The notes under the pieces were generated by a model that saw nothing but the letters and a program-made list of their open reading frames with translations, was not told the origin of the DNA and did no database searches. 56,874 nucleotides of DNA from a virus. Lineage: Duplodnaviria > Caudoviricetes. Position numbers and translations under genes: made by a program. The DNA lies in the IMG/VR virus record IMGVR_UViG_3300045970_000182, positions 1 through 56,874 of that record. One strand, 5' to 3'. Positions 35,716 through 55,063 of the stretch are shown one piece after another. The number at the start of each line of letters is the position of its first letter. Positions within the stretch are counted from its first letter, which is position 1.

Positions 35716-36182
35716 TAATACACTACTTTATCATTGTTATATTCAAAACAATATACATTACCTGTGCTATATTGATTGTTATACGCAGTAACTAAAGAAA
35801 GATCAGAGTCTTTATAGAAATACATCTTACTATTATAGATGAAAATAATAGCCATATAGTCCAGCTTCTTTATTTTTACTACCTGTTGATAATCTTCGAA
35901 CTTTTTATCTACGGTAAAATAGAATTTTCCATCTATTAGGTATGCCCTTTTCTTAACCTTGGCATCAACAGCGAAGTTTTCTCCCAATTCGTTATAAACT
36001 ATAAAGTCTGGAATGACTACAGATCCTTTTGTTCCTATCATACGCGGTCCGCCACCGTCTTTATACTTCTGGCGCCTGCAGTCTTCTACCCAGTCGTTAT
36101 GCTTTGTTAGCCAGGGATAGATCTTGTCTTCACCTGCAATACCCATTGCAAGTTTTTCTTCGAAGTTATTTCTTAATCGCAT
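35715..36182 (-). CDS. PD-(D/E)xK nuclease-like protein
   Basis: G..GE...IPDFIV...AVDAKVK. Confidence 0.55.
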   Translation of the reverse strand: MRLRNNFEEKLAMGIAGEDKIYPWLTKHNDWVEDCRRQKYKDGGGPRMIGTKGSVVIPDFIVYNELGENFAVDAKVKKRAYLIDGKFYFTVDKKFEDYQQVVKIKKLDYMAIIFIYNSKMYFYKDSDLSLVTAYNNQYSTGNVYCFEYNNDKVVY

Positions 36183-36642
36183 CTCTCACTCTCATTAGTG
36201 TAATACCGAGTAAGTTCTGACCGCGCCAAGTTGACTGGTCTAATGCGCGTGGATCATCTTCTGCTAGCCCTATACCCCATATTCTATCAACAGGACTTGC
36301 TTCTACAATAATAGTATCGCCTGTATTCAGTAATGCTTCTTTCAATAAGGGATTTTGATTAAACTTTTCAAATAATCCCTCAACCATTATATCGACTCGT
36401 TTTTCAGCCCATACTGCTTCGTCGTAGTTTGCAACCATTCTACCTAAATCTTTCTGCTCTTTAGGATTACCGGTTAATAGGATGGCATGAGCAGTATTAA
36501 CATCGCCAAATAGCATAGCTTTTTGATACATCATGTATTGCTCACCTCGGGAAAATGTGATACCGTTGTGTGTAAAAATGCTAGGATACCAGTTGGAGAA
36601 AGGCGACCTATTCTGCCAAAAGAAGGTAAAGTTGTGTGTCAT
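36166..36642 (-). CDS. NADAR (YbiA-like) family protein
   Basis: FSNWYPS, EQYMMYQKAMLFGD, KFNQN, VEASPVDRIWGIG, GQNLLG. Confidence 0.92.
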   Translation of the reverse strand: MTHNFTFFWQNRSPFSNWYPSIFTHNGITFSRGEQYMMYQKAMLFGDVNTAHAILLTGNPKEQKDLGRMVANYDEAVWAEKRVDIMVEGLFEKFNQNPLLKEALLNTGDTIIVEASPVDRIWGIGLAEDDPRALDQSTWRGQNLLGITLMRVRDAIKK

Positions 36643-38181: not shown

Positions 38182-38271
38182 TGGCGGAAGATAATAGAAT
38201 CGAACTATTGCCTATTCATCATAAGCAGGGCGGTTTTCGAGGCCGTTTAACTCCCAGAGTACCTATCTTCC
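38182..38271 (-). tRNA. tRNA-Ser(CGA)-like, non-canonical (possible 8/4 fold)
   Basis: GGAAGATA/TATCTTCC-G-CCA, long variable arm, CT-CGA-AA loop, 4-bp D stem with TGG loop. Confidence 0.75.
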
Positions 38272-38275
38272 ATTT

Positions 38276-38372
38276 CAGTATAGCTTAATAATGCCTACCA
38301 AGGTCTCAAAGGGAATCGAACCCTCCAGTTTCATTTTCAAGTTGAATTAGTTTTTGTTGCTGAAACTATACT
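38276..38372 (-). ncRNA. CAGC-stem ncRNA copy F (Y-RNA-like, with T-arm)
   Basis: AGTATAG-TTT-CAGCAAC...AGGG-TTCGATT-CCCT...CCT-TGGT-AGG...CTATACT-G. Confidence 0.7.
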
Positions 38373-38379
38373 TTAAAGT

Positions 38380-38471
38380 TGGTACGAGCGGAGAGGATCG
38401 AACTCTCTCAAGAACGCTAATCTGGCGCTAAAAGGTTTATAAGACCTCTCTGACTTCCAAGTCTCGCTCGC
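38380..38471 (-). tRNA. tRNA-like RNA with UAU anticodon, long variable arm and abbreviated D-arm
   Basis: GCGAGCG/CGCTCGT-A-CCA; GACT-TGGA-AGTC; GAGGT-CTTATAA-ACCTT; GAGAG-TTCGATC-CTCTC. Confidence 0.7.
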
Positions 38472-38488
38472 ATATTCTTTTACTTCTT

Positions 38489-38593
38489 TTACTTCTTGCG
38501 CGAAGCCCACCATGTTTTAACCTGATTCCAGATCATGATCCAAAATGGTGCAAATGCTGCGCCTACTGCTATACCTATAATCAAGTTTAACAT
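38489..38593 (-). CDS. small membrane protein (34 aa)
   Basis: MLNLIIGIAVGAAFAPFWIMIWNQVKTWWASRKK; AGGAG RBS and GATAAATA upstream. Confidence 0.65.
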   Translation of the reverse strand: MLNLIIGIAVGAAFAPFWIMIWNQVKTWWASRKK

Positions 38594-38641
38594 AATCTAT
38601 CTCCTGTGCGTTATACGCAATATTATTTATCTTTACTAAAA

Positions 38642-38715
38642 TGGAGCGGGATGGGAGAATCGAACTCCCGACTTCAGTTTGGAAAACTGAGGTAATGCCA
38701 TTTTACGAATCCCGC
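38642..38715 (-). tRNA. tRNA-Gly(UCC)
   Basis: GCGGGAT...TCAGT-TTTCCAA-ACTGA...ATCCCGC-T-CCA. Confidence 0.92.
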
Positions 38716-38719
38716 GTAT

Positions 38720-38795
38720 TGGTGCCCTTAGTCGGATTCGAACTGACCACCTACTGATTACAAAACAGTTGCTCTGCCAAATGAGCTATAAGGGC
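38720..38795 (-). tRNA. tRNA-Thr(UGU)
   Basis: GCCCTTA...TT-TGT-AA...TAAGGGC-A-CCA. Confidence 0.9.
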
Positions 38796-38840
38796 TTAAT
38801 CTTATTTATACGTTTATTATACAACTAAATGTATTATTGG

Positions 38841-39287
38841 TCAACTACACCAATCGGACTTTGGACCTATTCCTGTATATGGCCGAGCAAGACTATTCTT
38901 AAGCAGTTCTGCGCCAACATCTACGTTAGCAATAACCACTATTCCGTCTATGCGGCCGCCATATTTGTCCCATTTAACATTCTTAACTGTCATTGTAGTT
39001 TCTTTACCAACCAACGTTTTAACAAATGCTTTTGCTTCTAACCCCTTAGCTTTCTCGGCAGGGCATTTAGCAAGATAGGAAGTTTCGGGAGTATCTATTC
39101 CCAATATTCTAATCGATACATTACACAAAGGGCAGGGTAATGCAAGGGTGGAACTTATTGTGTCACCATCTACTACAGCCCTGATTGGTAATACCAAGTT
39201 GGCGGCGGAAGCGCATACAGCAGATAAAAATGCAACAGTAACTAAAAACCTTTTCATAATACTCCTCGGCCAAAAATAAGCCCTCAT
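38841..39287 (-). CDS. secreted thermonuclease (SNase-like)
   Basis: Signal peptide; VVDGDT, IRILGIDTPE, DKYGGRI, LARPYTG. Confidence 0.88.
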   Translation of the reverse strand: MRAYFWPRSIMKRFLVTVAFLSAVCASAANLVLPIRAVVDGDTISSTLALPCPLCNVSIRILGIDTPETSYLAKCPAEKAKGLEAKAFVKTLVGKETTMTVKNVKWDKYGGRIDGIVVIANVDVGAELLKNSLARPYTGIGPKSDWCS

Positions 39288-39328
39288 GATATATATTTAT
39301 CATAAGGGCGTATTCGGAGTATTTCTAC

Positions 39329-39538
39329 TTACTTTGCAGCAGATGCTTTTACAACTGGAGCGGATGCTTTCTTAGCAACCTTAAGTTCTTTGGCTTTCTT
39401 TGCTGGTGCAGAAGCTTTAACAACTGGTGCGGAAGCTACCACAGCTGGTGCAGATGCCTTAGCGACGGGTGCTGTAACTTGTGCAGATGCGGCAAACGAT
39501 GCGGCCAAAACAGCCAATACTAAAAGAGATTTCTTCAT
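39329..39538 (-). CDS. small secreted Ala/Lys-rich protein with ASAP repeats
   Basis: Signal MKKSLLVLAVLAASFAASA; four ASAP units. Confidence 0.7.
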   Translation of the reverse strand: MKKSLLVLAVLAASFAASAQVTAPVAKASAPAVVASAPVVKASAPAKKAKELKVAKKASAPVVKASAAK

Positions 39539-39639
39539 AATGTTCCTTGATGTGTTAATGCGAGTAAATCGCGTAGTTATTATTTATGCCTTACATACGA
39601 TTATAACGTAATAATCACGATTGGGCAACCTATCCAATA

Positions 39640-39662
39640 TAGGCCCGCATAATGCGGGCCTA
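39640..39662. terminator. hairpin downstream of the DUF2828-like gene
   Basis: TAGGCCCGCAT/ATGCGGGCCTA inverted repeat. Confidence 0.55.
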
Positions 39663-39678
39663 TATGAACTCAACTTAC

Positions 39679-41115
39679 TTAAAAGTCGTAGCGTTCGACC
39701 ATTACAGTCTTCAACATAATGCTGATCGGTGTCATTTCTTCTCCACCTAACACTGACTTAACAATGCTTGGCGAGAATCCAGACACTAATGCAGCACCTA
39801 CCTTGTTGTAGGTAACCGGGCTGTTTCCAGCACGACCATTCAGATTCCAAAATACCACTTGTGGCACCTTGTAACCAGCTGCGGCATATTCTTGTTCGAT
39901 GAAGTCCATTGCGCTTACGCTAACAGATGAACCACCACTCGACATATATCCACGAACCTTACCTGATCCGCCTGTTGTTACACAAGCGTCGAATTCCATA
40001 TCTGACAAGATCAAGATCTTTGTAGGCATTTCTGCTTCCGAAACCTTGTGCTTTACTGCTGCATTCAAGATTAACTTAAATACCGCACCCAGATCTGTAT
40101 TCATAGACCAGTTGGAACGGGCCATTTGGTCGTAACGTTGTTCCAGCGTACCCTTCAAGTGCAGCATTTCTGGTGCACCAGAGAATGTAACGAACATATC
40201 CTTAAATACGCCGCCCATTCTTTCCGATGTATACAATCCCAAAGAGATCGCAACATCCATGGCAGTTACGCTTCCAGACACTGCTACACCACTCATCGAA
40301 CCCGATACGTCAACAACCGATAGGATGTTTTCGTCCGAACCTTCCAAATAGTTTGGCAATGCTGCCCATTGTGCGTTCGCAACAACCTTATCGCCGTTCT
40401 TCAACGAGCGGATAACGTCATATGGATACGCAACAGATGCGTTGATCTTTGCTTCGCCCGATACCAACTTTTCCTTGTAGACACCATACCCCTTCGGGTC
40501 GTGCTTCAAGAATGCCTTTTGGTAACGGCCAGCTGCTACAGACGGAACATGTGGGTAAACAATGTTTTCCCAATCACGAGCACACATCTTTTGTTCTACA
40601 GTTGTAGACATTCCAACCAATAACTTACGATATTGCTTAGGTGTCATACGCATATAGGCACGGATTTTGTTAGCTTCTGCACCTTGACGGGGCATCCACT
40701 TAGCGCATAAACCATCTTGCACGTCATTCAACGCGAAAGAGATCATACGCAACGCATCACGCTCCAAAGGAGTGCCAAATGTCACAAACAAGTCGTCCCA
40801 ACGACCAAGTTCCGGTACCTTCATCAACAGACGAGCTGCCAACTTTGGTTCAGTCTTAATCAAATGTGTAAACAACTTACGGAACGTATCGCGTTCACCT
40901 GCACCACCACGTGCATCACGTGCCCATTCAAGGACACGAACTGCTACTTCGGGGTCTTCTACCAACGCACCGACAAAGGTAGGTGTAATATCCTTACCAC
41001 GGCTTGCGCCGGCTAAGAAAAATAGGTCCACGTTCTTATTTAACGAGGATGCGTTTGTAACTGCGCCATTGGCTGTTACGGCTGTTGCGTTTACTGCTGC
41101 GAATAATGTGCTCAT
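39679..41115 (-). CDS. DUF2828-type protein: TROVE/Ro60-like helical domain plus vWA (MIDAS) domain
   Basis: TANGA, RDARGGAGER, GRWDDL, AKWMPR, DVSGSM (MIDAS), ILSDMEFD, VFWNL, VSGFSP. Confidence 0.85.
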   Translation of the reverse strand: MSTLFAAVNATAVTANGAVTNASSLNKNVDLFFLAGASRGKDITPTFVGALVEDPEVAVRVLEWARDARGGAGERDTFRKLFTHLIKTEPKLAARLLMKVPELGRWDDLFVTFGTPLERDALRMISFALNDVQDGLCAKWMPRQGAEANKIRAYMRMTPKQYRKLLVGMSTTVEQKMCARDWENIVYPHVPSVAAGRYQKAFLKHDPKGYGVYKEKLVSGEAKINASVAYPYDVIRSLKNGDKVVANAQWAALPNYLEGSDENILSVVDVSGSMSGVAVSGSVTAMDVAISLGLYTSERMGGVFKDMFVTFSGAPEMLHLKGTLEQRYDQMARSNWSMNTDLGAVFKLILNAAVKHKVSEAEMPTKILILSDMEFDACVTTGGSGKVRGYMSSGGSSVSVSAMDFIEQEYAAAGYKVPQVVFWNLNGRAGNSPVTYNKVGAALVSGFSPSIVKSVLGGEEMTPISIMLKTVMVERYDF

Positions 41116-41129
41116 TTTACTTTCTCCTT

Positions 41130-41165
41130 CAGAATTGTTAATCTACGTTTTGCTGTTCAAATTCT
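41130..41165 (-). ncRNA. CAGC-stem element A (minimal; abuts the RBS of the DUF2828-like gene)
   Basis: AGAATTT-GAA-CAGCAAAA...AATTCT-G, then AAGGAG. Confidence 0.6.
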
Positions 41166-41169
41166 TTAT

Positions 41170-41279
41170 CAAGATCGCTTTTCTCTTTTTGACCTGTGTG
41201 CTACCGTTACACTAATAACCCGGAATCGAACCGGTCCACTGGTTTGGATTTTAAGATTTATTTTTGCTGAAACGATCTT
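41170..41279 (-). ncRNA. CAGC-stem ncRNA B with permuted tRNA-like T and D arms (Y-RNA-like)
   Basis: AAGATCG-TTT-CAGCAAAA...CCGG-TTCGATT-CCGG...TA-GTGT-AACGGTA-GCAC...CGATCTT-G. Confidence 0.8.
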
Positions 41280-41293
41280 TTAAATATTAAAAA

Positions 41294-41390
41294 CAGACTA
41301 GCTTTTGGCGAGTTTTTACTTTCCCCTCCAGAAAGTTTCGATTAGGTTGCCCCAATCAGTGCTTATTTTATTTTAGGCTGTAACTAGTCT
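41294..41390 (-). ncRNA. CAGC-stem ncRNA C
   Basis: AGACTAG-TTA-CAGC...GATTGGG-GCAA-CCTAATC, ACTTTC/GAAAGT...CTAGTCT-G. Confidence 0.7.
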
Positions 41391-41401
41391 TTACAAACTG
41401 T

Positions 41402-41430
41402 AGTATAGTATAACAACATTACACTGTCAA
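41402..41430 (-). promoter_or_regulatory. sigma70 promoter for ncRNAs C-B-A and the DUF2828-like gene
   Basis: TTGACA-N17-TATACT. Confidence 0.8.
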
Positions 41431-41451
41431 CTATACCACACTTTATTTTAA

Positions 41452-41694
41452 CGGGATGGTGGAAACAAAAGTTTATTTTCTGGTCTACTGTATCCCCTGT
41501 ATAATGGTTCAGCTTCCATAGACCCTATCATCCGATTCGGCGGTGACCTAGTTCACTCTTATTTCTGTTGTGACCCCATATCAGCTTCGGCTGTATATTC
41601 GTTTCCTCTGCGCCTTATATTTCTATAAGGTAAAGTTTACTCAACCACATTCTACGAATTTAAGCAGTATATTTTAATATGCTGTAATCATCCC
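41452..41694 (-). ncRNA. CAGC-stem ncRNA D (about 243 nt)
   Basis: GGGATGA-TTA-CAGCA...CATCCC-G; internal hairpins (CCG-AAT-CGG, CAGC-CGAA-GCTG, CCTTATA-GAAA-TATAAGG). Confidence 0.7.
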
Positions 41695-41713
41695 TCTTAT
41701 CTTACAAGCTGCT

Positions 41714-41742
41714 ATTTTACAATAACAACTATAAAATGTCAA
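41714..41742 (-). promoter_or_regulatory. sigma70 promoter for ncRNA D
   Basis: TTGACA-N17-TAAAAT. Confidence 0.8.
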
Positions 41743-41748
41743 ATATAT

Positions 41749-42002
41749 CAGTATGGTGTAAGGGACAATATTGCTGTTCCTAAGAACCATATATTGCTAA
41801 CGAGGCCTTACCACCGTTTTGGAATTGTTAGCCACTGTCCGTGTGGTTTGATTGCACGCTAGTTAACTTCATAGCCTTCCTATTGGATAGGCTCCATTAC
41901 TTCGCCAATACTTCGCTTCAACGGGTTGCCCCTCTGCTATGTATCCTGTAAGCAATCACCATAGACATCTTTCGATGTAAGTTGTTTTGCTGCATCCATA
42001 CT
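41749..42002 (-). ncRNA. CAGC-stem ncRNA E (about 254 nt)
   Basis: AGTATGG-ATG-CAGCAAAA...CCATACT-G; internal hairpins (ACATC-GAAA-GATGT, GGG-GCAA-CCC), GCAATAT/ATATTGT helix. Confidence 0.7.
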
Positions 42003-42021
42003 TTAATGCTCTACAACGTGT

Positions 42022-42050
42022 ATTGTATAGTGTTTTTATTTATAAGTCAA
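42022..42050 (-). promoter_or_regulatory. sigma70 promoter for ncRNA E
   Basis: TTGACT-N17-TACAAT; the spacer contains TATAAATA. Confidence 0.75.
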
Positions 42051-42084
42051 CCTATTTTCTGTGCGAATATAGGGTAAAAAGAGC

Positions 42085-42816
42085 CTATTTTGTTAAATGA
42101 GCTAACTCTTTATCTATAAAATCAACCGCACGCTTGATAAGACGCCTATAATCGGGTGATTGGGTTCTTTCTGGGAACAAATCTGCAATTTCATATTTAA
42201 GTAGCAAATGATTCAAATCGTGCATAACCTTTGGTCGAGCTTGGTCGGGAGATTGTTTAAGTGCTCGTGGAATGATTGATGTTGATAATACATCCAACAC
42301 TTCTGTAAATCTTGCATTTATCTCGGCTGGTTGAGCACGATACTGGGCTGTACTATAAGGGTCTTCCTTACGATGCTCTTTCTTCCGTGGAGTAAAATAT
42401 CCTTTTGCATCGCCCGGAAAAAATCCCGATTTATATTCATCTAATGCGTGTCTTAGTTCATGAGTAATAGTTGTTCTCATTCTATCTGCATCTAAATAGT
42501 CGAGATTAAGCACTATGGTTTTGATAGATTCGTCCCACATTGCAAGAACTATGCCTTCGTACTTTTTACCGTTTGATTCTTTTGATCTCTCGATAAATGG
42601 TTCACCGCCCTGGAGTTCAAGTCCTACATTGTTTAATACTTCGATAGGTGTGTCAAATAGATCACCTATCTTTCCTAAACTAACTATTTCTTGTTCTTCG
42701 TCTGTATAGTCGGGTTCAGTAACAAAATAGTTCTGCAACTTTGCATAGACGGCAGAGGATAACGACACAAGTGCCCTATCTTCCTCTGTTGTCTCGAATA
42801 ATTCTTGCAGTCTCAT
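42085..42816 (-). CDS. zincin-like metallopeptidase with MRLQELFE N-terminus
   Basis: HELRH motif plus downstream Y...P.EINAR; GATAAATA upstream. Confidence 0.7.
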   Translation of the reverse strand: MRLQELFETTEEDRALVSLSSAVYAKLQNYFVTEPDYTDEEQEIVSLGKIGDLFDTPIEVLNNVGLELQGGEPFIERSKESNGKKYEGIVLAMWDESIKTIVLNLDYLDADRMRTTITHELRHALDEYKSGFFPGDAKGYFTPRKKEHRKEDPYSTAQYRAQPAEINARFTEVLDVLSTSIIPRALKQSPDQARPKVMHDLNHLLLKYEIADLFPERTQSPDYRRLIKRAVDFIDKELAHLTK

Positions 42817-44505: not shown

Positions 44506-45525
44506 TTATTGCCTTAATAAATATTTGTTAGATACCACCTTAAAACTTGCGTGGCACTCATTACAATTAAATACAAGGCCTTCTCTTTCACACCCGATCA
44601 TTCCCATAACAGATTTACCTTCAGCAAATAATAATAAATCATTAATAGTCTTATCGGATAAATCATATACCGAATTAAGTATAGGGACAGATGTCAACCC
44701 CAAGTGTTCTATTAATAATTTCTTCTCTGCAGGATATAAATATTCTTGTTTATCTATATCATAAATATCAAATACAACCAACATATGATCTTTTAATTGG
44801 TATATATTTCCCTGAATCCCTGGTCCTAAGATTTCTGATTGGATTGCTAAATTCCTGTTTAACGCTAATAATTTATTTTTCAAATCATACTTAATAGCAG
44901 TTTTCCACATTGTATTGTTTTCGTCTTCCTTTAAGTCGAGATTACGGCTGCAAACACCAAACTCACTGTCCATTAGATAAGCTGTAAGCGATGAGCCTTC
45001 ACATTTTTCAGACACCGACCAGGTGAATTTCTTTTCTTTCCAAAATTCAAGTTCTTTTGGTAGATTTTGAATTCTCTCTTGGTCAGTTTTAGGAATTCTC
45101 GACGGAAAGTTTCCGCGCACAAGTCCTGCAAGCTGAGCAGAGATAGGTGCTTCATATTTTTGAATGTTAAGCGGGAAAGATACATCCAATCCTTCAAACA
45201 GCATAGATTCTATGTTAGCGCAAGTTGGTTCGAGCGGTAGTAATAGACCTTGACTAAGCTGCTTTTTTAGCCGAATTGTGCGTAGTTTTTCGCCCTTAAC
45301 CCCGTTATACTCCCGCGGCTCTTTGCCTTTACACAAAAACGGCGCTAATTCGACGGGAATCCAGGAATCAGGTTCAGCATATACTACCAAATCACCGACC
45401 ACATATCTTCCTACCTGGTCAACAACCCACCAACCGTCCACCCGATACGCACAGATTAAATCTGCTTCGGGTATTGCTTGTATTTCTGCTATCTTTCTGA
45501 TAGTAGCCATTTTTCTTTCTGTCAT
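44506..45525 (-). CDS. RNA ligase (Rnl2/DRB0094-like family)
   Basis: N-terminal OB-like ATIRKI...VDGW.VV; motif I EKCEGSS, VCSRN, GPGIQGN, REGLV, FKVVSNKYL. Confidence 0.9.
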   Translation of the reverse strand: MTERKMATIRKIAEIQAIPEADLICAYRVDGWWVVDQVGRYVVGDLVVYAEPDSWIPVELAPFLCKGKEPREYNGVKGEKLRTIRLKKQLSQGLLLPLEPTCANIESMLFEGLDVSFPLNIQKYEAPISAQLAGLVRGNFPSRIPKTDQERIQNLPKELEFWKEKKFTWSVSEKCEGSSLTAYLMDSEFGVCSRNLDLKEDENNTMWKTAIKYDLKNKLLALNRNLAIQSEILGPGIQGNIYQLKDHMLVVFDIYDIDKQEYLYPAEKKLLIEHLGLTSVPILNSVYDLSDKTINDLLLFAEGKSVMGMIGCEREGLVFNCNECHASFKVVSNKYLLRQ

Positions 45526-45731
45526 TTTACCCCCTTTAATTTCTTTACTATATGCTCTGCTTCCCACTCTTCGAGTCCGTCGTTTAACCAACGCCGATAA
45601 TCCTCCAACGCCCACACAAATCTATCTGGCGTATATTCCGGTTTGTGTTCAACCAATACATCTAGCGCAGTGAGTGCTTTGCGATGTTGCTTCATTGATC
45701 CTGCAATATATTCTTTGCGGCGTGCAGCCAT
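45522..45731 (-). CDS. hypothetical protein
   Basis: 69-aa ORF overlapping the ligase start. Confidence 0.55.
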   Translation of the reverse strand: MAARRKEYIAGSMKQHRKALTALDVLVEHKPEYTPDRFVWALEDYRRWLNDGLEEWEAEHIVKKLKGVK

Positions 45732-52097: not shown

Positions 52098-52172
52098 TGG
52101 TGCCCTGTGTCGGAATCGAACCGACGAATAAAAGTTTTAGAGGCTTCGGATCTACCATTGATCTAACAGGGC
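52098..52172 (-). tRNA. amber suppressor tRNA (CUA anticodon)
   Basis: GCCCTGT/ACAGGGC-A-CCA, GATC D stem, anticodon arm GAAGC-CT-CTA-AA-ACTTT, GTCGG-TTCGATT-CCGAC. Confidence 0.8.
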
Positions 52173-54579: not shown

Positions 54580-54608
54580 AAAAAGAAAGGGGCCGAAGCC
54601 CCCTCTTT
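54580..54608 (-). terminator. terminator after tmRNA
   Basis: GGGGC-TTCG-GCCCC-TTTCTTTT. Confidence 0.85.
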
Positions 54609-54945
54609 GATTGGTTTGGTTACAAGGTCTTTCTACCTCGCGCTTTGTGTTTCTTAGGCAGCAATAGCGTAGTGAGTATCGTTTGCAGATATTCTGTTTT
54701 GCTTGATTTACAGTCATCGCCTACTGAGTTGCCTTTTTCAATATCTCACGCCATCGATTACCGGAGCAGCCCCATCAGAAACACTCTTTGGTCTATCCGA
54801 ACTTGTCCGTGAATCACGGAGAGTATTCTGGTGTACCAGCCCTGAGAGTTGATGTTATCGTATCTTCAAGAGTGTTTATGGTGGAGCTGGCGGGATTCGA
54901 ACCCGCGTCTGGCTTGCCTTTTCTCCAACGGAATTACAACTATCA
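54609..54945 (-). ncRNA. ssrA: circularly permuted (two-piece) tmRNA; tag ANDTHYAIAA
   Basis: Acceptor piece GACGCGGGTTCGAATCCCGCCAGCTCCACCA (ends 54879) precedes GGGGCTG (54773); tag frame 54686-54654; G3:U pair; promoter TTGATT-N17-TATAAT at 54952-54980. Confidence 0.9.
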
Positions 54946-55063
54946 ATCTATATTATATTATGTCACTAATATAAAATCAACTATCCACGAATGCCGAGTA
55001 GAGCAGGAGGTGCATACACTCATGTATTTATTTTAATATTGAAATAAGTTAACTATAGCTTAA

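Follow-up and report, generated by a model that had tools for sequence, protein, structure and literature searches.

What does the elbow of a transfer RNA (tRNA) do in an RNA that has neither the arm order nor the acceptor stem of a tRNA, and to which partner might such an RNA belong? This question is raised by two small RNAs, B and F, encoded on the minus strand of the virus record IMGVR_UViG_3300045970_000182, which was analysed over its whole length of 56,874 bases (estimated completeness 15%) and is called the window below; its source is a T4-like phage from freshwater. A preliminary description, made from the sequence alone, had noted in both RNAs a T arm that precedes a D arm with the acceptor hairpin essentially missing, had likened them to the YrlA class of Y RNAs, and had proposed that this elbow-only mimic serves as a decoy for, or a recruiter of, tRNA-binding enzymes. 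The explanation that accounts best for the evidence, and that is held here to be probable, is that B and the more reduced F are phage YrlA-type Y RNAs, in which a handle carries an acceptor-less, permuted tRNA elbow, and that they act as adaptors of a Ro60-like ring protein. In the case of B, this explanation draws on observations of four kinds, namely its anatomy, its conservation and covariation among relatives, its linkage to a gene of the same orientation, and the fold predicted for the product of that gene, which is Ro60-like.

RNA B lies in a gene-free gap of 969 bases (41116-42084) directly ahead of this gene, and the parts of the RNA and the position of the gene can be read from the sequence as follows:

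41171-41279, minus strand: noncoding RNA (ncRNA) B, 109 nucleotides (nt), in which a closing stem with a C(A/C)GCAA handle carries a tRNA-like module that has no acceptor arm.
41279-41270 and 41180-41171, minus strand: closing stem, AAGATCGTTT pairing with AAGCGATCTT, 10 of 10 pairs, one of them U.G.
41269-41264, minus strand: CAGCAA, directly after the 5' strand of the closing stem and followed by an A-rich stretch.
41243-41239, minus strand: ACCAG, 5'-proximal strand of the anticodon-like stem, followed by three bases before the T arm.
41235-41219, minus strand: T arm, ACCGG-TTCGATT-CCGGG, with four Watson-Crick pairs and an outer A.G pair.
41218-41215, minus strand: linker TTAT, 4 nt, where the acceptor hairpin would stand.
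41214-41213, minus strand: TA, the equivalents of U8-A9.
41212-41198, minus strand: D arm, GTGT-AACGGTA-GCAC, with equivalents of A14, of G18 and G19, and of A21.
41196-41192, minus strand: CAGGT, 3'-proximal strand of the anticodon-like stem, with one A.A mismatch against ACCAG.
39679-41115, minus strand: gene of the 478-amino-acid (aa) Ro60-like protein, with Pfam matches to DUF2828 (PF11443) and DUF7788 (PF25043).

All of the strings that had been quoted for B and F were found, on the minus strand, and the sequence of B agrees with the preliminary description both in placing the T arm before the D arm without an acceptor hairpin and in letting the anticodon-like stem run on into the long closing stem. 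A single A separates the D arm from CAGGT, an A-rich stretch leads from CAGGT to the 3' strand of the closing stem, and a conserved G (41170) follows directly after that strand. Compared with a tRNA, B is without a free-ended acceptor stem of 7 base pairs (bp) and without an anticodon loop, and its arm order is permuted; neither B nor F is among the eight tRNA genes called in the window by ARAGORN and the Rfam tRNA model. The Ro60-like gene, of which the preliminary description made no mention, has the same orientation as both RNAs; B ends 56 nt upstream of it, and F is found about 1.3 kb downstream.

Taken by itself, the arrangement of the two arms carries little weight. A loose pattern for a T arm followed by a D arm within 3-14 nt has B as its sole match in the window, and the same pattern has at least one match in 35 of 200 dinucleotide shuffles (mean 0.185); the T-D motif by itself is not rarer than chance and proves nothing. 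The closing stem, the T hairpin and the D hairpin are all formed in the minimum-free-energy fold of B, which has a single-sequence z of -1.72 and is equalled by 9 of 200 shuffles. The case for the structure of B rests on its relatives. These were gathered by a scan of viral contigs with the neighbouring 478-aa protein, which led to 80 loci (given L-numbers below), and in many of them a B-type RNA adjoins the protein gene; early scans for a stem plus a CNGC motif were very noisy in coding DNA and were used only as a source of candidates. In an alignment of nine acceptor-less B orthologues, whose partner proteins are 77-88% identical to that of the window, 87.5% of the pair cells are paired, as opposed to 30.8-47.2% when the 3' partners are slid, and 10 of 24 pairs have changed on both sides, a number that 7 of 500 shuffles reach; all four helices contribute. 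The weakest helix of the nine is the anticodon-like stem (75.6% of cells paired, two pairs changed on both sides). RNAalifold, when given no structure, recovered the closing stem (7 pairs), the T stem (4) and the D stem (4) from the alignment and did not recover the anticodon-like stem.

A covariance model built from the nine orthologues, R1, was run on the window and the 80 loci (592,603 bases, both strands) and gave 100 matches at E <= 1, every one of which lies on the strand of the Ro60-like gene; B, which is itself a seed sequence of the model, scores 112.1 bits. Across the 73 distinct matches 87.9% of cells are paired, compared with at most 44% in slid controls, with the proviso that such an alignment leans towards the model. 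The pairs of the T stem and of the D stem covary both in the nine orthologues and in the 73 distinct family members, and the closing stem itself covaries freely among the latter. Around this stem, the family members have a common handle: the 5' strand starts with AG (A in 69 of 73, G in 66) and is followed by C (73), A (58) or C (12), G (73), C (73), A (71) and A (60), and the 3' strand is followed by G in 72 of 72 rows, although these counts overstate conservation, the rows having been selected by a model that contains the handle features. What the handle carries varies, and its cargo may be a T arm, hairpin and D arm; a T arm, linker and D arm, as in B; a T arm only (L054, L068, L069 and L078); a D arm, anticodon arm and T arm in that order (L045:2005, L054:4466 and L064:2579); a hairpin with a pseudoknot; or nothing. 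At least six handle RNAs stand in a row upstream of the Ro60-like gene at the distantly related L045 (1525-2391), and likewise at L046 and L059; the L045 array has five T/hairpin/D modules and one module with the normal tRNA order of D arm, anticodon arm and T arm inside the handle. Within 3 kb of the protein homologue of Vibrio phage ValKK3, no match to R1 or to the Rfam YrlA model was found.

The second RNA of the window, F, lies outside 41170-41279, the span to which the preliminary description was attached, and is wedged into a tRNA cluster, 7 nt past tRNA-Ile and 5 nt ahead of tRNA-Ser:

38372-38277, minus strand: ncRNA F, with the handle AGTATAGTTT-CAGCAA ... AAGCTATACT.
38325-38309, minus strand: T arm, GAGGG-TTCGATT-CCCTT, intact.
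Between the T arm and the D-arm remnant, minus strand: linker TGAGA, 5 nt.
38303-38294, minus strand: D arm, CCT-TGGT-AGG, vestigial, 2-3 bp around TTGGTA.

F is matched by R1 with 39.3 bits (E 8.3e-5), and the 10-mer GTTTCAGCAA has no exact copies in the window other than those in B and F. The model aligns one of the four pairs of the D stem of F, so that of the T-then-D elbow ascribed to this RNA the T arm stands and the D arm survives only as a remnant. Orthologues of F in L004 and L005 have kept the acceptor hairpin and have a full D arm.

The protein encoded next to B belongs to no family in NCBIfam or PADLOC, and matches PHROG 850, a family named 'RNA-binding protein'. An AlphaFold model based on 25 homologues (mean predicted local distance difference test score 79.3) consists of helices (residues 27-252) followed by an alpha/beta domain resembling a von Willebrand factor A (vWA) domain (264-471), in which the residues D269, S271 and S273 of the metal-ion-dependent adhesion site motif DxSxS are invariant among the 25 homologues. 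When this model was compared with the Protein Data Bank (PDB) by Foldseek, ranks 1-12 were all Ro60/TROVE structures (E 3e-10 to 2e-5, query template-modelling score 0.33-0.58), including Ro60 of Thermus phage phiLo, Rsr of Deinococcus, and Ro60 of Xenopus and human, and were followed by isolated vWA domains. A search of PDB chains with the single sequence gave nothing useful, while the family profile reached phiLo TROVE chains at E 6.7e-4, in the vWA part only; a designed repeat protein, the top match of the family profile in the PDB, was rejected as spurious, as no single stretch of it passes. Homologues were found by tblastn in 710 phage records, among them Felix-like coliphages and phages of Listeria, Staphylococcus, Campylobacter, Vibrio and mycobacteria, and those of the mycobacteriophages are annotated 'Ro-like RNA binding protein'. 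Judged by its modelled fold, the neighbouring gene product is a divergent Ro60 homologue.

With a Ro60-like partner predicted on this basis, the comparison of B with YrlA becomes direct. YrlA (RF02553) has been described in Salmonella Typhimurium, Mycobacterium smegmatis and 22 phages, and in the accounts given by PMC4201824 and 10.1101/312249 a T arm, an acceptor-like stem-loop and a D arm follow one another in this order, while the anticodon stem continues into the stem that binds Ro60. B is like YrlA in its place beside a Ro60-type gene on the same strand, in the long stem formed by its 5' and 3' parts and continued into an anticodon-like stem, in the order of T before D, and in its tRNA-type loops; Y RNAs often stand in tandem in the YrlA class, as they do in the present family (PMC4201824; 10.1101/312249). 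B and F share with YrlA RNAs a distance of no more than about 4 kb from a Ro60-type gene of the same orientation, the gene being in their case Ro60-like by fold. The acceptor hairpin that B lacks is present in its relatives: between the T and D arms of RNAs from L006, L007, L011, L016, L019, L021, L045, L066, L068, L069 and L074 stands a self-complementary hairpin of 5-8 bp, capped by GAAA, TTCG, GTAA or a similar loop. Several of these relatives are matched by Rfam YrlA below its 69-bit threshold (L006 35.8, L066 33.7, L069 33.2, L068 31.9 and L020 27.8 bits), and such scores count only together with the anatomy, because control genomes match as well; in the alignment of L066 to RF02553, the T arm, the hairpin and the D arm correspond column for column. 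The published YrlA of mycobacteriophage ET08 is likewise below the cut-off, at 37.4 bits.

Cultured phages have such RNAs too. Mycobacteriophage Silverleaf has, immediately downstream of its 'Ro-like' gene, an RNA with the CAGCAA handle that scores 50.6 bits with R1 and 39.8 bits with Rfam YrlA. In Felix O1 (L085 5391-5521), a handle-bearing T/hairpin/D RNA is found in a tRNA cluster downstream of the protein homologue (40.4% identity), where the record shows no RNA gene and only a short open reading frame (ORF) on the opposite strand, and in Citrobacter phage Ci1 (L088 5012-5125) a handle-bearing tRNA-like RNA is partly annotated 'tRNA-Pseudo'. The kinship with YrlA that the preliminary description had pointed to is thus borne out by relatives with the order of T arm, acceptor hairpin and D arm, together with their sub-threshold YrlA matches and the Ro60-like fold of the neighbour. 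ET08 itself yielded neither a homologue of the window's protein nor an R1 match in a quick search of its genome, an empty result that is weak and that hints at two Ro60 lineages in phages.

These relatives also bear on whether B and F are functionless, decaying remnants of tRNAs, either a tandem pair or a permuted pseudogene. The phage is rich in tRNA genes and F stands between two of them, the D arm of F is degraded, the B orthologue of L002 has non-canonical loops, and the motif alone, as mentioned above, is not improbable. Against this, compensatory changes maintain all four helices, and the arms are kept across orthologues from phages whose Ro60-like proteins share no more than 77-88% identity. 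A decayed pair of adjacent tRNAs, which the preliminary description had itself named as a challenge to its proposal, would leave two unrelated acceptor strands between the arms, and in the relatives this segment is instead a self-complementary, capped hairpin whose flanks pair together. The enclosing handle, moreover, is common to the whole family and is not a feature of tRNAs. Decay is for these reasons disfavoured and regarded as highly improbable.

The absence of the acceptor hairpin can be placed within the family, as both arms could be parsed for linker and elbow nucleotides in 24 distinct RNAs; left out of this parse were F of the window, L020:2868, L012:2010, L066, L059:2489, L045:2118, L045:2261 and L064:2808, in which the model mis-aligned the D arms. 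A hairpin segment of 18-30 nt separates the arms in 13 of the 24, and 11 were scored as having a short linker of 5-12 nt, a number that falls to ten after the removal of the mis-parsed L045:1858. The short-linker calls for L020:2868-2987 and L045:1858-1952 were artefacts of the model alignment and were discarded, since both RNAs have the hairpin. The linker of L014 and L015, CCUUCAUAGG, can still form three pairs. When compared outside the linker, several acceptor-less RNAs are closest to RNAs that have the hairpin: L017 to L011 (identity 0.82), L014 to L007 and L016 (0.77 and 0.76), and F of the window to the F orthologues of L004 and L005 (0.76). The clade of B groups with itself and forms a fourth acceptor-less group, and at L020 hairpin-bearing and short-linker RNAs stand side by side. 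This distribution suggests that the acceptor hairpin was lost, and less likely gained, in at least four lineages.

In comparison with the acceptor arm, the nucleotides of the elbow are well kept. Equivalents of A14 and A21, the first and last positions of the D loop, are present in all 24 parsed RNAs, and a GG in the D loop together with a T loop that starts UUC is found in 22 of them. The two without GG (AACAGCA in L002 and AAUAGCA in L074) are exactly the two that have UGC T loops, a paired change at the 18:55 positions in two distant loci that would be expected if the D and T loops touch; this correlated change is the best evidence here for a D/T loop contact, as judged from sequence. The loss of the acceptor arm with the elbow retained suggests that the elbow may be the working part of the tRNA look-alike.

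Besides the chance-level behaviour of the motif and of the single fold described above, a number of observations weigh against the explanation preferred here. RF02553 gave no match to either RNA at its gathering threshold (69 bits) or at E <= 10 (searched in 33-57 kb and in 41080-42120), so that the Rfam comparison that had been suggested for them came out negative, and a general Rfam search of the B/F region gave only chance matches to miRNA or snoRNA models. Sub-threshold matches to RF02553 are also found in 13 of 14 control genomes, and tandem tRNAs produce them as well. The acceptor stem-loop of YrlA (nt 50-64 in Salmonella) is replaced in B and F by a linker of 4-5 nt, and its GNCGAA(N0-1)G motif is absent from the 5' part of both, where the phage family has C(A/C)GCAA (PMC4201824; 10.1101/312249). 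The partner of YrlA is a TROVE Ro60 (PMC4201824), whereas that of B is a DUF2828/DUF7788 protein with no match to Pfam TROVE (PF05731) at E <= 0.01. Unlike in YrlA, the Levitt pair (15:48) is not kept in the subgroup of the window: its canonical form is found in 3 of 11 short-linker RNAs as opposed to 11 of 13 with the hairpin, and B reads A:G. An A.A mismatch within the anticodon-like stem and an outer T-stem pair of A.G are further irregularities of the same subgroup, and the L-shape of the acceptor-less RNAs may be less tRNA-like than that of YrlA. Finally, gp130, the Ro60-like protein of the coliphage Bas63, is reported to have enabled phage T7 to withstand the Ppl defence when supplied alone from a plasmid (PMC11482910), and since it acts alone, that anti-Ppl activity needs no phage Y RNAs.

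The retention of the elbow would also be expected if B and F were free decoys for a host tRNA-binding enzyme or for a tRNA-targeting defence and worked independently of Ro60. The elbow nucleotides are the best kept while the acceptor arm is repeatedly lost, and the window is rich in genes of translation support and conflict (the eight tRNAs, a permuted transfer-messenger RNA, an RNA ligase, a NADAR protein and an SNase-like nuclease). Against this, the handle is common to RNAs with pseudoknot cargo or none and so points to a common protein-binding function instead of one confined to tRNA mimicry, and the RNAs closely follow the Ro60-like gene in both strand and location; without an anticodon loop, B and F could be no decoys for anticodon nucleases. 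Such a role is considered quite improbable, and by analogy the recruiter alternative of the preliminary description, as the effector module of a Y RNA, would fit the YrlA literature (as represented by 10.1101/312249) better than the free decoy.

If B and F are Y RNAs, as preferred here, the elements that surround B deserve attention, as the handle recurs twice more between the nearest promoter-like site and the Ro60-like gene:

41402-41430, minus strand: promoter match TTGACA-17-TATACT, 11 of 12 positions of a sigma-70-like consensus, upstream of RNA A.
41295-41390, minus strand: ncRNA A, with the handle AGACTAGTT-ACAGCC ... AGCTAGTCT and pseudoknot cargo, 15 nt upstream of B.
41131-41165, minus strand: minimal handle hairpin AGAATT ... 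CAGCAA ... AATTCT, ending 3 nt ahead of GGAG, the Shine-Dalgarno sequence of the Ro60-like gene.

RNA A has a hairpin, CUUUC-UGGAGGG-GAAAG (41335-41319), the loop of which pairs through GGAGGG with a downstream CUCGCC to form a pseudoknot. Its counterparts are found in L001, L002, L004, L006, L007, L011, L012, L014, L016-L019, L021 and L022, and in 15 sequences four of the six pseudoknot pairs have changed on both sides, with 91.5% of cells paired as opposed to at most 63% in slid controls; in L022 all six pairs are standard and five differ from the consensus, and in L017 the changes are largely compensated, with one mismatch. Rfam gave only a chance-level match to tsr25 (E 3.8) over RNA A. 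That the GGAGG loop of RNA A mimics a Shine-Dalgarno sequence was considered and rejected, as the loop is engaged with CUCGCC in this covarying pseudoknot. The minimal hairpin was not reported by R1 at E <= 1, and equivalent minimal hairpins stand directly before the gene in L011, L012, L016-L019, L021 and L022, while in L001, L006, L014 and L020 it is the tRNA-like RNA itself that lies a few nt before the ribosome-binding site. The relatives thus always carry a handle element a few nt ahead of the ribosome-binding site, which suggests that the Ro60-like protein may repress its own translation through a handle placed there. A search of the region for sigma-70-like promoters found 11 sites against 9.8 expected, by match to the consensus only, and the site at 41402-41430 is a possible start of a transcript that would comprise A, B, the hairpin of the untranslated region (UTR) and the gene.

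This layout is what would be expected if B acted in cis, as part of a structured 5' leader through which the array of A, B and hairpin controls translation or stability of the Ro60-like mRNA, for instance by autoregulation through the handle, with the tRNA-like part as a sensor or stabiliser. No promoter-like site lies between A, B and the gene, the nearest being upstream of A; the last handle element is always close to the ribosome-binding site; and 53 of the 70 distinct R1 matches in the loci are upstream of the gene. The other 17, however, are downstream, Silverleaf-type layouts among them, and both F and the Felix O1 RNA sit in tRNA clusters, from which tRNA processing would release them. 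Known Y RNAs are themselves co-transcribed with rsr and then processed, according to PMC4201824, and a role in the leader and one as a Y RNA are not mutually exclusive. As the sole function of B, control in cis is judged unlikely.

Further upstream in the same gap, an element of about 250 nt (41440-41700, minus strand) starts with GGGATGATTACAGCA and ends with CCATCCCGTT, is handle-like, and has a strong promoter-like site, TTGACA-17-TAAAAT (41742-41714), ahead of it; the AGGGTAGGTTCAGCAG-type RNAs of L005 (2698-2826) and L011 (2020-2148) are its possible counterparts. A weak R1 match (20.3 bits, E about 1) was also seen at 41955-42005 on the minus strand, where a hairpin, TATGGATG-CAGCAAAAC, stands just downstream of a 243-aa ORF and may be another minimal handle.

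Parts of this system have been described elsewhere in other combinations. YrlB of M. smegmatis has only a possible T arm on its Ro60-binding stem, which is like the T-arm-only members of the phage family, and Yrn1 of Deinococcus radiodurans has T-like and D-like parts in another order, which may be compared with the members that have a D arm, anticodon arm and T arm (PMC4201824). B differs from both in combining a T arm and a full D arm without an acceptor arm, a combination not found in the description of them given by PMC4201824. Ro60 of Thermus phage phiLo (PDB 9KOP, 9L5Y) is the best structural match of the modelled protein of the window (Foldseek E 3e-10 and 5e-9, 18% identity); two Y-like RNAs, Yrl1 and Yrl2, are located upstream of its gene, and it binds phage Y-like RNAs and host polynucleotide phosphorylase (PNPase) in vitro (PMC12135203). 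It differs from the present system in that the protein is annotated as TROVE and that the RNAs have a stem-bulge-stem form with CGAA, and the main text of PMC12135203 does not use the term 'tRNA-like'. In the Felix-like coliphage Bas63, gp130 is encoded directly upstream of a tRNA cluster, and the authors of PMC11482910 surmised that Y RNAs are among these 'tRNAs', the text identifying none; the Felix O1 homologue of the window's protein is in a gp130-type position and is a putative counterpart of gp130. The rnaC and rnaD of T4 (species 1 and 2), at the end of its tRNA cluster, are, as F is, small stable RNAs set among tRNAs, and rnaC has a hairpin like a T arm; as relatives of F they were rejected, since the R1 match to rnaC covers nothing but its 17-nt T arm (11.3 bits, E 2.2) and the stretch reads without CAGCAA or CCGCAA.

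How these parts would work together can be outlined as follows. A, B, the UTR hairpin and the gene would be made as one transcript and then processed, and F would be released by tRNA processing. The handle, made up of a closing stem of about 10 bp that starts with AG, the C(A/C)GCAA on its 5' strand and the G after its 3' strand, would bind the Ro60-like ring, an assignment suggested by the sharing of the handle across the family and from the known biology of Ro60 and Y RNAs. The second module would be a circularly permuted tRNA look-alike whose anticodon-like stem continues into the handle; B and F having lost the acceptor stem-loop, what would remain is an elbow, formed by the T and D arms and the predicted contact of their loops. 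Through this elbow, a host protein able to recognise the elbow of tRNAs would be tethered to the ring, or entry to the ring would be gated. The docking step is drawn by analogy with the PNPase complexes of Deinococcus and phiLo and with YrlA of Salmonella; the complex of Ro60, Y RNA and PNPase in Deinococcus is the precedent (PMC4201824), and 10.1101/312249 expects the effectors of YrlA to bind the conserved elbow and describes differences in size among the acceptor, anticodon and variable regions. In M. smegmatis, RNase P cleaves and the CCA-adding enzyme extends YrlA, which there has an acceptor stem of 7 bp (PMC4201824); as B has no acceptor stem, both events are unlikely for it, and B would stay a closed adaptor.

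The genes in the vicinity give some indication of the process that may be served. From about 34 kb to 57 kb of the window the gene direction is that of the minus strand, and flanking the region of the Ro60-like gene, the Y RNAs and the tRNAs are found:

44506-45615, minus strand: RNA ligase, PF09414 plus an OB-fold (oligonucleotide/oligosaccharide-binding) domain.
36166-36642, minus strand: NADAR-domain protein.
38841-39287, minus strand: nuclease resembling staphylococcal nuclease (SNase-like).

Together, these look like a neighbourhood of RNA repair and counter-defence. The RNA ligase and tRNA genes suggest a role in RNA repair or turnover, to which a part in counter-defence may be the alternative. 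On the same strand, a circularly permuted, two-piece transfer-messenger RNA (tmRNA) was observed at 54584-54989 (Rfam beta_tmRNA 132.6 bits, tmRNA_permuted 122.8 bits), where ARAGORN called none. A tRNA with a CTA anticodon at 52098-52172, also on the minus strand, is labelled 'tRNA-Pyl' by ARAGORN and is scored as a normal tRNA by Rfam (59.7 bits); it is probably of the amber-suppressor type. The sequencing runs that contain 38200-42100 of the window are DNA runs labelled as pond, wetland, river and sediment metagenomes, with no RNA run among them.

Much of the background to this system is already known, including tRNA-mimic Y RNAs and their presence in 22 phages, variable acceptor length, tandem Y RNAs and phage Ro60 (PMC4201824; 10.1101/312249; PMC12135203; PMC7824862). 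Three features were not found in the literature searched, the supplementary phage list of PMC4201824 aside: the acceptor-less T-D elbow, a handle with C(A/C)GCAA, and DUF2828/DUF7788 proteins paired with identified Y RNAs. The titles and abstracts of the DUF2828 literature have nothing on phages or Ro60. On the evidence set out above, B and F are an acceptor-less variant of YrlA-like Y RNAs in a divergent phage Ro60 system. A wider and more tentative proposal, possible rather than probable, is that the DUF2828/DUF7788 proteins are a sister branch of Ro60 with a hitherto undescribed Y RNA class of its own, in which one handle carries exchangeable cargo and synthesis is throttled by the product itself; if this is true, the phages would have one ring protein with a set of adaptors, and the acceptor-less elbow would be a minimal ligand for an elbow-binding factor of the host, resistant to RNase P and to CCA addition. 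A phage protein that is very common, with 710 records, is linked to Ro60 and to a recognisable RNA handle, the bearers of which are missed in genome annotation or called pseudo-tRNAs, and its carriers include cultured, tractable phages such as the relatives of Felix O1 and Citrobacter phage Ci1. For the binding partner of the tRNA-like module of bacterial Y RNAs, recognition of the elbow has been predicted by the paper on the structure of YrlA (10.1101/312249). The loss of the acceptor arm, at least four times and with the nucleotides of the T and D loops kept, may be regarded as an evolutionary deletion experiment that points to the elbow, and the acceptor-less RNAs offer a smaller bait for the partner of this module.

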